Positions 20,125-34,103 of a stretch of DNA of 41,013 bases are shown here, piece by piece (positions within the stretch are counted from its first letter, which is position 1; every line of letters begins with the position of its first letter). The notes under the pieces were generated by a model. It saw only the letters and a list, made by a program, of their open reading frames with translations, did no database searches and was not told the DNA's origin. A program made the position numbers and the translations under genes. Origin of the DNA: a virus; the UHGV virus genome UHGV-1836508; one strand, given 5' to 3'.

Positions 20125-21000
20125 TTAAATTTTTACATTGGTCAGTGCAGCGATAGCCTTATCGTGCTTATTCGCCAGAGAGCAGTACCACTTCACACGG
20201 GTACGTACTGCGTCTTTGTTCTGTACAGTACCAATGTTTTCAACAACGATACCTGCGTTGTCGCCGCCATACAGACCAGTAACGCCGTTCTCTTCTGACA
20301 GATGCAGGCAGTAGATGCTTGCTTTGCCAGAATCGGTCGGGATGAAGTCGTTGATGATGAACGGAACGCCGTTATGACACAGCATCGGACGACCGAAGTT
20401 CTCCATCATGATTTCAGACGGACCTACGTTTACTGTACGCAGCAGCGCACGGTAAGCACGCAGGTGCTCTGAACGCATCATGATGCAGTCAGCACCAAGA
20501 TCTTTCACCGCATCGACCAGTTCGTCGAACATAGAGAAAGTCATAGATGCACCGGCGATATCGATCTTCTGATCTGCGTGCATCAGGCGTGGAATGCCGT
20601 CAAACGCCTTGTTGTTGGAGCTGGAGTCACCCAAAATCAGGTTGCGACGGAACGCACGAGCCAGACCTTTAACTTTCTGACGAACCTGAATAGCCAACTG
20701 GTTGTTGGTGTCGGCCATAGTGGTCGCCAGGAATTTATCAACGTCTACGTCACCAGCCAGAATACGCAGTTTCGCAACGCATTCTTCGAAGGTTGCTGCA
20801 CCTTCAGGGATGGTGTCGTTAACGTCGATGAAGGTAGCTTCACTCAGCGTTTTTTCACGGTTGTACAGATATGCCTTTGAATTAATTTTCATAAAAGGCA
20901 GGATGGCAAACAGGTCATCGCGATCGATGATAGTTTCGATCACACCCTGTTCAAGTTCGTTGTTAGACAGCTTTTCAGCTTCTTCACGCAGTAATGGCAT
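20125..21000 (-). CDS. major capsid protein
   Basis: 291 aa after scaffold and portal, followed by an attenuator; composition and length typical of HK97-fold capsid proteins. Confidence 0.75.
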   Translation of the reverse strand: MPLLREEAEKLSNNELEQGVIETIIDRDDLFAILPFMKINSKAYLYNREKTLSEATFIDVNDTIPEGAATFEECVAKLRILAGDVDVDKFLATTMADTNNQLAIQVRQKVKGLARAFRRNLILGDSSSNNKAFDGIPRLMHADQKIDIAGASMTFSMFDELVDAVKDLGADCIMMRSEHLRAYRALLRTVNVGPSEIMMENFGRPMLCHNGVPFIINDFIPTDSGKASIYCLHLSEENGVTGLYGGDNAGIVVENIGTVQNKDAVRTRVKWYCSLANKHDKAIAALTNVKI

Positions 21001-25443: not shown

Positions 25444-25463
25444 AGAGCGCGTCCATGCGCTCT
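25444..25463 (-). other. leader hairpin immediately upstream of the terminase small subunit RBS
   Basis: AGAGCGC-gtccat-GCGCTCT, 15-20 nt before the SD. Confidence 0.5.
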
Positions 25464-30748: not shown

Positions 30749-30784
30749 ATGATGTGCTCACTTGTTAGAAAGGAGCACATCATG
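30749..30784 (+). other. 11-bp perfect stem-loop sequestering the SD and start codon of the next gene
   Basis: ATGATGTGCTC (30749-30759) pairs with GAGCACATCAT (30773-30783); loop holds AGAAAG of the SD; the ATG at 30782 is in the stem. Confidence 0.55.
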
Positions 30785-31348
30785 AGTTGGTTAAAAGAAT
30801 TATCATTTGTTGACACCACTGGCGCTAAGAAAAATCATTCTTTCTGGAAAGTCAGCGATCCTTCTGATTTTCTTGTTGGTGCTAATGCTGCTTTTGAATT
30901 GCTTAACTTTTATCAACGTTATCCAGAAATGAAACACAGTCCACTCCTGTACAGAATAACAAACGATATGAATAGGTCTGGTTTATTATCAAGTGAGTCA
31001 GCGAAAGGCTTTTTTAGCAAAATTACGCCTCACATATCATTCGATGCAACAAACGAAATTGATTATCTATCCACGAAATCTCAAGAACAATTATCTGTAC
31101 CACCTGAGAAAAAAGAAAGACGAATTGCCAGCATTGAAAATATATCGAAAGAGCTTCGCACAACAACGTTGAGGCTGCTGAACTTTCTTACGCTGCTTAA
31201 TTGGATAGATGATCAAACATTGATTCCATCAACAGATGCGTTGGATAACAGAGTCCTTAGGCTGAACAAAAAATCGCAATTTGGTTTTGTGTTCACCAAA
31301 AAAGGTGAAGATTTAATCAAAAGAAAATATAGATTATTGAATGATTAA
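30782..31348 (+). CDS. hypothetical 188-aa protein (AT-rich accessory gene)
   Basis: SD AAAGGAG 7 nt upstream of the ATG at 30782; the track start at 30749 lacks an SD. Confidence 0.55.
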   Translation: MSWLKELSFVDTTGAKKNHSFWKVSDPSDFLVGANAAFELLNFYQRYPEMKHSPLLYRITNDMNRSGLLSSESAKGFFSKITPHISFDATNEIDYLSTKSQEQLSVPPEKKERRIASIENISKELRTTTLRLLNFLTLLNWIDDQTLIPSTDALDNRVLRLNKKSQFGFVFTKKGEDLIKRKYRLLND

Positions 31349-31732: not shown

Positions 31733-32533
31733 TTATTCTTCTGGTGGCACGACAAAATCATCGAGCTTATTCTTTTCGTCTCGAAGCAACTTGATTTCTT
31801 CTTCTGTTATACATTTGTCATAATCTGTTTGTTCAGAATGGCACAGTGTAACCGCGAATGGATAGCCGGTATAGGACAGTCCCCTAACAGGTTCTAGTTC
31901 ACCGTTGTCTTTTTTCCTAAATTTGTAAAAGTCAGGAGTGTCATAATTGGTGACGCTAACAAGAGCATATTTATCATTTTCTCTTGCATACACTTCACTA
32001 ACACCTCTCGATTCGCCCAACTCTCTACTCACATATGTCGAATCACTTGCTGCATCAAACACAGCCTGACCTAATGGAGTTTTTTTTAAATCATCTATTT
32101 TCTCTTTTTCCTTCCTGATTTTAGATTCGTTTTCCAGATAAAGTTTCACACCGTTTTCTTTACATGCTAGATTTTGGCGTTCAAAACGTAATCGTTCTCT
32201 TGCCGAGTTGGCACTTTTATCCATTGTAACGAATACAATCGGGTTACGTTCACGAACATCAAAGATGTGCGCATTGAATGCGGTCGCACCTGTATAGGCG
32301 TTCAAGACGTTTTTGCCATTCACCTCTCCACATACCATATATGAATAGCTATTTTCACCTAACTGAATAGCTCGCATATTCGTGAACCGACCAGCATCAG
32401 GATCTAGCAGTGTAGAGCGAATATCCTTTTCAACTAGATCTATGGCTCGCTCTTCATCAGAATCACAACCTGTTAATAGTAAAGCCGCTATTAACAATGC
32501 TAATGAGTATTTTTTATTCACCCCATTCTTCAT
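31733..32533 (-). CDS. lipoprotein (signal peptide with lipobox LTGC), stand-alone accessory gene
   Basis: N-terminus MKNGVNKKYSLALLIAALLLTGCDSD; own divergent promoter region and downstream hairpin; AT-rich. Confidence 0.7.
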   Translation of the reverse strand: MKNGVNKKYSLALLIAALLLTGCDSDEERAIDLVEKDIRSTLLDPDAGRFTNMRAIQLGENSYSYMVCGEVNGKNVLNAYTGATAFNAHIFDVRERNPIVFVTMDKSANSARERLRFERQNLACKENGVKLYLENESKIRKEKEKIDDLKKTPLGQAVFDAASDSTYVSRELGESRGVSEVYARENDKYALVSVTNYDTPDFYKFRKKDNGELEPVRGLSYTGYPFAVTLCHSEQTDYDKCITEEEIKLLRDEKNKLDDFVVPPEE

Positions 32534-32635
32534 GAAACTTATTCCATAATCAATTTTTGGTGGAATGTACGGTTAGTCTGTCTACGCATCATAGAGATGT
32601 ATATAATGACCAAAAAAGACTTAAAAAGGTAGACT

Positions 32636-33157
32636 ATGGTTAAAGACATCACCTACGGCATACCGGCTGAAGTCTGGCCGCGAGACTACGAACATGCTGA
32701 AAACATACTTATGTTCTGGCGGAAGAACAACATTCCTGTAAGAGTCACGCTTGAAGACGGTCAGGTGTTTTGCATGTACGTTCAGGGGACAATGCCTTCC
32801 CGCAATAAGCTAGATTTATGCCCGCTTCCATATGATAAAGAAAATCGTATAAGACTCCCACTTGAGCGCATTAGCACAATTGAATCAGGTGTAATCGATG
32901 GCATTGCTCGCGAGTTCAAAGGTAGGCTAACAATACATCCAGACTATGTTGACAATCAGCCATCACGCCGTGACTTTTTTGCGATATGTCGCAAGGCTTA
33001 TCAAAACGACCAATCTATAAGGGTCTACATGACAGACGGTCGTGAAATAGAAGGGGTGTCAAGAGGCGTTGATGCTTGCCAGGTCACTCTTAAATTAGAA
33101 GACGGCAGAAAAATACTTGTTTTCTTCGATTGGGTTGAACGAATCCTTCCATTTTAA
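32636..33157 (+). CDS. hypothetical protein with two tandem Rof/YaeO-like repeats (possible Rho modulator)
   Basis: Internal duplication …VRVTLEDGQVFCMYVQG…RIRLPLERISTIE / …QVTLKLEDGRKILVFFDWVERI resembling the LTLELKDGE…RLDKITSF pattern of Rof; TATAAT at 32602-32607 upstream. Confidence 0.35.
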   Translation: MVKDITYGIPAEVWPRDYEHAENILMFWRKNNIPVRVTLEDGQVFCMYVQGTMPSRNKLDLCPLPYDKENRIRLPLERISTIESGVIDGIAREFKGRLTIHPDYVDNQPSRRDFFAICRKAYQNDQSIRVYMTDGREIEGVSRGVDACQVTLKLEDGRKILVFFDWVERILPF

Positions 33158-33168
33158 ATCTATAAGGG

Positions 33169-33198
33169 TAATAACCGGCTAAGCCCGGTTATTATTTT
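33169..33198 (+). terminator. intrinsic terminator
   Basis: TAATAACCGG-ctaagc-CCGGTTATTA followed by TTTT. Confidence 0.7.
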
Positions 33199-33339
33199 AC
33201 ATGCCATTCATTTAAAACTCTTTCAATGTCACTCTGTATAAATATATAAGGTTAAAAGCCCGAATTGATTATTTATTTAGGGAACACCTTCGACGATCTC
33301 GCTTTTATTTCTAGGACTTTCATCCCTGCAGAAAATTTA

Positions 33340-33367
33340 AAAAAAATACTTGCAATCTTTTTTCACG
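33340..33367 (+). promoter_or_regulatory. sigma70-type promoter (TTGCAA - 16 bp - GATAAT) with upstream A-tract
   Basis: -35 at 33340-33345, -10 at 33362-33367, A-rich block 33321-33338; flanked by inverted repeat ttcgacgatctcgctttt / ctcgtcgaaagcgag. Confidence 0.55.
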
Positions 33368-33452
33368 TATCGATAATTGAACTCGTCGAAAGCGAGCTAG
33401 CTAACGACAGTAAAAAATAAATTCATTTTAATTTTTCGTAAGGATGTCCATC

Positions 33453-34103
33453 ATGACTAACATTATCATTTCTAAAAAGTCCATCATTGAAGCTGCTGCC
33501 ATTGTATCCGACGAGCTGCGCGAAAAAGCAGATCTGGCAACTCAAACATATAACGAACATTATAAAAATGGTACGCACACAAAAGCAGACAAAGCAAATA
33601 TGCAAGCTGCGACCACCAAACTTGCTTACTTCATCAACAACGTCGTAAACGCAGTAGAAGACGAAAAATTGTGCTCTGTTTTCTACTATGCGATCAAAGC
33701 AAGCAAACAAGCGCCAGAAGTATTTTTCCGTGATGCAATGACTAATAGTTATTCTCTGGAAAAACTGGTTTATCTGGTTAAATCCATTAAAGCTGGAAAG
33801 TGTGTTTATTCCGTCGCTGATATGTCCGGATCTCGTGTATTCGCATTAATCGATATGATTAACGACGAGATCGAGACGTTCACAAATGGCGCTGTTTTCG
33901 ATTTAATGAATGAAGCGAAAAAAGCCAACGAAATAAAATTAGACGCAGGATACACTCAAGCCAACCAGCTTATCAATCTTTGCGAACGTCTTGGACTTGT
34001 TGAGAAAGTCAAAGGAATGGGAAGCGCAAAAGCTGGTACGCAGCAATATCGCTTTATTAAAAATGATTTCTATAACTATCTGGCTGATGCTTTCAAAGCG
34101 TAA
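33453..34103 (+). CDS. hypothetical 216-aa protein
   Basis: SD AAGGA before the ATG at 33453; own promoter and terminator; no motif recognised. Confidence 0.55.
   Translation: MTNIIISKKSIIEAAAIVSDELREKADLATQTYNEHYKNGTHTKADKANMQAATTKLAYFINNVVNAVEDEKLCSVFYYAIKASKQAPEVFFRDAMTNSYSLEKLVYLVKSIKAGKCVYSVADMSGSRVFALIDMINDEIETFTNGAVFDLMNEAKKANEIKLDAGYTQANQLINLCERLGLVEKVKGMGSAKAGTQQYRFIKNDFYNYLADAFKA

Follow-up and report, generated by a model that had tools for sequence, protein, structure and literature searches.

The virus genome UHGV-1836508 contains an open reading frame with a translated sequence of 173 aa, and the question it raises is what kind of regulator this small protein may be. An earlier note, made from the letters of the DNA, had read it as a stand-alone gene whose product has two repeats resembling Rof (YaeO), the E. 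coli inhibitor of Rho, and had suggested that it modulates Rho-dependent termination. The whole stretch of DNA analyzed is 41,013 nt long and is termed the window; all positions refer to it (Table 1). The open reading frame is present as described, and the peptide segments quoted in the note match its translation exactly. The protein family to which the translated sequence is assigned is however a different one.

Table 1. Features of the FljA-like locus and its downstream region, with positions in the window
Feature	Position	Strand	Basis and remarks
CDS, 173 aa, ATG start	32636..33157	+	ORF call; FljA-family protein
TATAAT, -10-like hexamer	32602..32607	+	Read from sequence; no consensus -35 at 16-18 nt spacing
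Weak Shine-Dalgarno AAGGTAG, ending 3 nt short of the ATG	32626..32632	+	Read from sequence
N-terminal segment, aa 1-17, DITYGIPAEVWPRDY	32636..32686	+	One of the best conserved parts of the family; low-confidence model
First Sm/Hfq-like domain (predicted), aa 18-84, one helix and five strands	32687..32887	+	AlphaFold2 model
Second Sm/Hfq-like domain (predicted), aa 111-173, one helix and five strands	32966..33154	+	AlphaFold2 model
Intrinsic-terminator-like hairpin, core AAUAACCGG / CCGGUUAUU, 6-nt loop, then U-rich tail	33165..33198	+	RNA fold
Conserved non-coding block upstream of the partner gene	33225..33443	+	Found with the FljA-like gene in almost every related element; association only
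Partner gene, 219 aa, PHROG 1513	33444..34103	+	No Pfam and no PADLOC match; downstream in nearly all loci

The 173 aa sequence matches the Pfam family PF03614 (Flag1_repress, FljA, "repressor of phase-1 flagellin") with an E-value of 1e-80 and a score of 269.9 bits, where the cut-off is 24. The match spans profile positions 1–170 of 170. A second match is to PHROG 1444 (4.8e-98). An alignment of 34 family members, including the flagellin-linked proteins, shows that the family-invariant residues are all present, i.e. Y7, G8, E12, P15, R16, D17, Y18, P34, R71, E83, R112, D113, F114, F115, C118, R129, G135, D165, W166, V167 and R169. By sequence comparison the gene product is a full-length relative of FljA, the Salmonella repressor of flagellin mRNA translation. 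Some RefSeq records already carry the family name ("repressor of phase-1 flagellin"), and the SSU5 homologue carries the annotation "putative repressor of phase 1 flagellin".

The DNA sequence shows 100% identity to Escherichia phage Cyrano (OV696614.1), in which the gene is CYRAN_114, annotated as 'Transcriptional regulator'. Cyrano has ParB and helicase genes in addition to structural genes of a siphovirus and is therefore of the SSU5/pHCM2 type of phage-plasmid. The window spans the ends of the linear Cyrano record: record position 101 corresponds to window position 25458 on the minus strand, record positions ~100237–101937 correspond to window positions 33700–32000, and an exact match to the first 40 nt of OV696614.1 was not found in the window. 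Since the window crosses the record ends, it represents either a form that is circular or permuted, or a nearly identical plasmid, e.g. NZ_OY754366.1.

Homologues are found in 831 plasmids of PLSDB, nearly all of ~100–115 kb and non-mobilizable, with Klebsiella (341), Escherichia (229), Enterobacter (92), Yersinia (62) and Salmonella (60) as carriers. Among complete E. coli genomes the gene is present in 243 of 5426 (about 4.5%), plasmid-borne every time and chromosomal in none. Only 32 family representatives were recovered when 1.84 billion representative proteins were searched with the profile. Enterobacterial-type phage-plasmid DNA is also present in records labelled 'MAG: Bacillota bacterium', 'Candidatus Fimivivens' and 'Gemella morbillorum' (L006, L007; P0079); these labels probably reflect mis-binning or contamination and not true hosts.

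SSU5, pHCM2, pMT1 and other SSU5-type elements have the same gene at the same position, with 54–100% identity to the CYRAN_114-type protein. There is no essential difference between these homologues; what varies among the elements is the lipoprotein neighbour at 31733..32533 and the promoter region. Salmonella enterica FljA, including FljA(z66) of the linear plasmid pBSSB1, aligns with the CYRAN_114-type protein over the whole length. The two have the invariant residues in common and are of equal size class (173–179 aa), and a two-domain architecture is predicted for both from the alignment. FljA(z66) is likewise borne on a mobile element (PMC2652032). The identity between the phage-plasmid protein and Salmonella FljA is however only 35–37%. 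Unlike its Salmonella counterpart, the phage-plasmid gene lies outside any flagellin operon, with no invertase in its vicinity; it belongs to the phage-plasmid backbone and occurs also in hosts without flagella.

The signals around the gene agree in part with the earlier description of a stand-alone unit with its own TATAAT promoter and a strong terminator. The -10 hexamer is perfect, but an acceptable -35 is absent and a sigma-70 consensus scan called no promoter at 32602..32607. Among related elements the 'GTATATAATGAC' context of the hexamer is found only in loci L019 and L068, and TGTATAAT is found in L037. The terminator stands: the hairpin has 14 bp and a folding energy of -15.5 kcal/mol (z = -3.38; one of 200 shuffles folds equally well), and a U-rich tail follows. 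A simple terminator scan did not call this hairpin, which is due to the thresholds of the scan. The gene is stand-alone in that it is flanked by signals of its own and lacks a flagellin partner, but the same conserved downstream gene is nearly always present. PADLOC gave no defence-system match for the FljA-like protein or for three of its four neighbour genes, and the fourth, at 30749..31348, has only a marginal SspC match (E-value = 0.0059). Rfam matched no known RNA over positions 32300–33600 at E ≤ 1.

The internal duplication described in the note is weak at the sequence level and evident in the predicted structure. Compared with each other by BLASTP, the two halves give an E-value of 0.048 over 14 aa. 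Alignment of the half-profiles by hhalign has a probability of 2.2% (E-value = 0.022), which becomes 33% (E-value = 4.5e-4) with distant family members added. The AlphaFold2 model (mean pLDDT 83.3, pTM 0.54) displays two tandem units of one helix and five strands each. In the first, the helix is at aa positions 19–30 and the strands are at 34–39, 44–53, 58–62, 71–75 and 79–84; in the second, the helix is at 111–123 and the strands are at 127–132, 137–145, 149–153, 159–163 and 167–172. As modelled, both halves adopt the Sm/Hfq-type fold. Searches of the PDB sequences, run both with the protein and with the profile of its family, turned up chance matches only, e.g. ferritin, LSm7 at E~1 and kinesin, and no solved structure for the FljA family was among them. 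No paper connecting FljA with the Sm fold was found in the searchable literature.

The N-terminal segment ahead of the first unit contains the invariant residues Y7, G8, E12, P15, R16 and D17, and its pLDDT is below 50 at residues 1–7 and 12–14. It is retained as DITYGTKR in a very distant clade (P0231, P0232, P0234) and is missing in another (P0222, P0223, P0228). This segment may serve for binding and become folded only upon contact with its ligand.

The predicted fold, an N-terminal helix followed by a bent sheet of five strands, is held in common with Hfq. The score of the FljA-like protein against the Hfq profile PF17209 is 19.9 bits, which is under the gathering threshold of 27, and the NCBIfam Hfq profile gives 12.4 against a threshold of 61.7. 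Hfq is a homohexamer of single domains, whereas the FljA-like protein would have two domains per chain. The Sm2 motif 'YKHAI' of Hfq is absent from both halves, and by inspection LPLERISTIE and FFDWVERILPF stand in its place.

Pfam and NCBIfam profile scans detected no HTH or other DNA-binding domain in the 173 aa. An RNA-binding translational repressor fits well with the tandem Sm fold and the lack of a DNA-binding domain. With all possible targets taken together, the protein is likely to be an RNA-binding repressor that acts post-transcriptionally.

Characterised fljA genes follow immediately after a flagellin gene, usually together with an invertase. This placement was confirmed in four loci (L008, L089, L090 and L102), i.e. 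a Franconibacter chromosome (L008), a Salmonella Muenchen plasmid (L089), a Salmonella Senftenberg linear plasmid (L090) and the canonical hin-fljB-fljA arrangement, which was verified for P0207. The window protein has 35–44% identity to these flagellin-linked FljA proteins. By contrast, neither the window nor any of 80 viral loci and six plasmid-like genome-contig loci has a flagellin gene within 5 kb. The search patterns of the genome-contig scan were biased to the phage-plasmid clade and overlooked Salmonella fljA, which was recovered through the plasmid hits and the search of representative proteins.

The neighbour that is retained is the partner gene. In almost every related locus its homologue starts 0.3–1.1 kb 3′ of the FljA-like gene, and it displays 82–98% identity across these loci, against 54–99% for the FljA-like gene, and it persists beside family members that are only ~25% identical. 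The order ParB, helicase, ~93 aa open reading frame, then FljA-like gene and ~220 aa partner gene is kept in distant clades (22–27% identity; 45% for P0208). One distant family member is on a 104-kb Providencia-like contig. The upstream flank of the FljA-like gene differs widely among elements. In the window it contains a divergently oriented gene for a putative lipoprotein of 266 aa (PHROG 20234; 31733–32533, minus strand), which is upstream in a minority of related elements and looks like a variable accessory (moron-like) insertion.

The non-coding block ahead of the partner gene is conserved in 73 distinct related loci, also in those whose FljA-like protein is just 54–65% identical, and it is better conserved than the adjoining coding sequence, including that of the FljA-like protein. 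It contains the conserved motifs 'ATTTATTTAGG[GC]AACACCTTCGA' and 'TTTATTTCTA[AG]GAC', a promoter-like CTTG..-17-..CGATAAT at 33350–33377, a conserved leader and the Shine-Dalgarno sequence TAAGGA of the partner gene. Directly past the conserved -10, at 33385–33408, there is an imperfect palindrome or leader hairpin, which is ATCGAAAGCG-AACA-CGCTAACGAT in most loci and has GTCG...CGAC in the window. The consensus fold is weak (-3.35 kcal/mol), with compensatory AU to GC changes in two sequences and GC to AU changes in three. This element could be a structure in the RNA or an operator in the DNA.

Between pairs of phage-plasmid copies, including those on K. pneumoniae and Y. pestis plasmids, dN/dS is about 0.10–0.16, and the protein is therefore functional. 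A neighbour-joining tree, midpoint-rooted, rough and without support values, places the flagellin-linked proteins in a single clade. Its sister group is formed by the enterobacterial phage-plasmid proteins, and two other phage-plasmid clades branch off more deeply than this pair. The tree is suggestive of a flagellin-linked FljA nested within the phage-plasmid diversity.

The function that we favor, tentatively and at a little short of an even chance, is that of a FljA-type post-transcriptional repressor, for which host fliC mRNA would be the single most likely target in a flagellated E. coli. As presented in PMC2652032, Salmonella FljA and FljA(z66) bind the 5′ leader of fliC mRNA and block its translation, and the mechanism is credited there to Bonifield & Hughes 2003 and Yamamoto & Kutsukake 2006. 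Cells that make FljA(z66) contain fliC mRNA but do not translate it, and the linear plasmid with fljA(z66) and without a functional flagellin gene turns motile E. coli non-motile (PMC2652032). The fliC mRNA is the only target known for the FljA family. By analogy with these proteins, RNA binding by the window protein is presumed and its target would be of the same kind. Aldridge et al. 2006 is reportedly another of the original papers on the mechanism of FljA.

Under such a mechanism, a small protein with two tandem Sm domains behind a conserved N-terminal segment would attach to a specific mRNA at its 5′ leader, prevent translation and thereby destabilize the message. The gene, carried on an SSU5/pHCM2-type phage-plasmid, would be transcribed from its own promoter and transcription would stop at its own terminator. 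A lysogen would then make little or no flagellin; this may lower its costs, conceal an immunogenic antigen or deprive flagellotropic phages of their receptor.

Two features of the family are in keeping with repression of fliC. The sister position of the flagellin-linked clade is most easily explained if the phage-plasmid protein already repressed fliC before a flagellin cassette captured it. The faster evolution of the FljA-like protein, when compared with its neighbours, is expected of a protein that tracks a variable host target. Counted against fliC as the target are the low identity to the tested FljA proteins (about 36%), the 86 phage-plasmid loci in which no flagellin gene is found within 5 kb, the intact Klebsiella and Yersinia plasmid copies under purifying selection, and the unchanged place of the gene in very distant phage-plasmids. 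A search of the searchable literature found no experiment on any phage-plasmid copy of the FljA-like gene.

A fliC-leader-like operator within the window was considered and rejected. The E. coli K-12 fliC leader was compared with both strands of the window by blastn-short and Smith-Waterman, and the best score, 24, is no better than those of shuffled sequences (21–28). An 85%-identical copy of the gene is present at 20210–20722 of NC_018651.1, the 109-kb plasmid of E. coli O104:H4 str. 2009EL-2050. That a carrier is serotyped H4 is weak, circumstantial evidence that carriage of the gene does not silence flagellin, although the H type was possibly assigned genetically.

The protein could also be an Sm-type RNA-binding regulator whose target is not flagellin, i.e. 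a phage-plasmid mRNA or another host RNA, and roughly a third of our confidence lies with this reading. The conserved leader of the partner gene is one candidate target here, and repression of flagellin in Salmonella would be a later, derived use. The backbone position of the gene is kept across all deep clades of the family, and this synteny, down to 22–27% identity, suggests a role in the biology of the element itself. The family is tiny, and its readable clades that are not linked to flagellin are all in phage-plasmid synteny, though one of them (L099) is only a 1.8-kb contig. Purifying selection on the Klebsiella and Y. pestis plasmid copies points in the same direction, as does the block with its hairpin or palindrome before the partner gene, which is more conserved than the FljA-like coding sequence. 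If the partner-gene leader were the target, however, equal conservation of the FljA-like protein would be expected, and this is not observed. Support for the hairpin is itself thin, with a weak folding energy and few compensatory changes, and the element can equally be read as a DNA palindrome. No alternative RNA has direct support. The chance-level result with the fliC leader in the window is neutral for this reading.

A related proposal concerns the origin of the family. The FljA family may originally have been a backbone gene of SSU5-type phage-plasmids that encoded a tandem-Sm RNA-binding regulator for the element's own biology or for takeover of the host. Salmonella FljA would then descend from a copy that an incoming flagellin cassette had captured and that became domesticated, and the phage-plasmid target need not be flagellin. 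Klebsiella is without flagella and Y. pestis is non-motile, and persistence of the gene in these hosts would be explained by such an ancestral role. The hin gene, which is related to phage invertases, offers a parallel to the capture of FljA. In its full form this proposal is regarded as rather doubtful.

The database names 'Transcriptional regulator' and 'transcriptional repressor' would fit a DNA-binding or ligand-sensing transcriptional regulator, acting for example on the palindrome at the start of the partner-gene transcript. A palindrome resembling ATCGAAAGCG-N4-CGCTAACGAT does lie directly past the conserved -10 of the partner gene. The names however descend from the old FljA name, and FljA was later found to act post-transcriptionally (PMC2652032). 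The profile scans of the 173 aa, as noted above, detected no DNA-binding domain. WYL proteins have separate HTH domains, whereas the FljA-like protein has none. This function is considered unlikely.

The remaining proposal is that of a tandem Rof-like protein which binds host Rho and inhibits Rho-dependent termination during takeover. Rof is a Sm-like homologue of Hfq, and both proteins bind and inhibit Rho (PMC11018626). The Sm-like fold would thus be common to Rof (PF07073) and the FljA-like protein as predicted. A low-confidence alignment of the N-terminal half with Rof spans nearly all of Rof, including its N-terminal 'TYxP...DY' motif. The Rof residues that contact Rho are C10, Y13, D14, E17, R46, K47, N48 and E50, of which Y13 and D14 are essential, and the alignment places P15, Y18, E19, E22, S55, R56, N57 and L59 at these positions. 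Residues are identical or conservative at five of them (Y13 to Y18, D14 to E19, E17 to E22, K47 to R56 and N48 to N57), whereas C10, R46 and E50 are unmatched. Within the FljA family Y18 and N57 are conserved, but the equivalent of the essential D14, position 19, is E, S, T, K or Q. On this tentative alignment, the key Rho-contact positions of Rof would not all be conserved across the family.

A profile comparison with the Rof family was among the checks proposed in the earlier note. With hhalign the N-terminal half has a probability of only 7–36% depending on the profile chosen, which is 12% once distant FljA relatives are included, and the C-terminal half has 0.6–1%; the Rof profile used is shallow (109 sequences, all at least 85% identical), and a single Rof sequence was also used. 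None of these values is significant. The Pfam profile PF07073 has no match among the 34 family members even at E ≤ 10, and a PDB search with the family HMM at E ≤ 10 gave neither Rof nor Hfq chains. In structural comparison Hfq ranks well above Rof. The pattern that the note had seen is therefore real as a weak N-terminal alignment and a shared Sm fold, but similarity specific to Rof is not significant. The assignment to the Rof family or as a Rho modulator gives way to the full-length FljA match, and membership in the Rof family is rejected as a relatedness beyond the Sm fold.

The two proteins also differ in architecture and mode of action. Rof is a single domain of 84 aa whose N-terminus inserts into the N-terminal domain of Rho and must be free beside helix 1, as a His-tag abolishes activity. 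The FljA-like protein is 173 aa long, its second domain is internal, and 17 conserved residues precede the first helix. Rof acts by protein–protein inhibition of Rho and not by mRNA binding, whereas mRNA binding is the activity demonstrated for the FljA family. The resemblance to Rof is that of the shared Sm/Hfq-like fold only, and action on Rho is very improbable.

On its face the gene is an ordinary, already annotated member of the FljA family, and the Rho-antagonist story is unsupported. The points of value are the predicted tandem-Sm architecture of FljA, the conservation of the gene in non-flagellated hosts, and the possible phage-plasmid origin of the Salmonella repressor. Two Hfq-like Sm domains in one chain, as predicted, would provide a structural rationale for the binding of mRNA by FljA. 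The family is small and is centred on phage-plasmids common in clinical Enterobacteriaceae, e.g. pHCM2 of S. Typhi and pMT1 of Y. pestis. If flagellin is silenced, as in the favored function of fliC mRNA repression, these elements would alter host motility, H-antigen expression, visibility to TLR5 and sensitivity to flagellotropic phages. If flagellin is not the target, conservation in non-flagellated hosts points to another RNA target, and a phage origin would be suggested for a classic regulator of phase variation.
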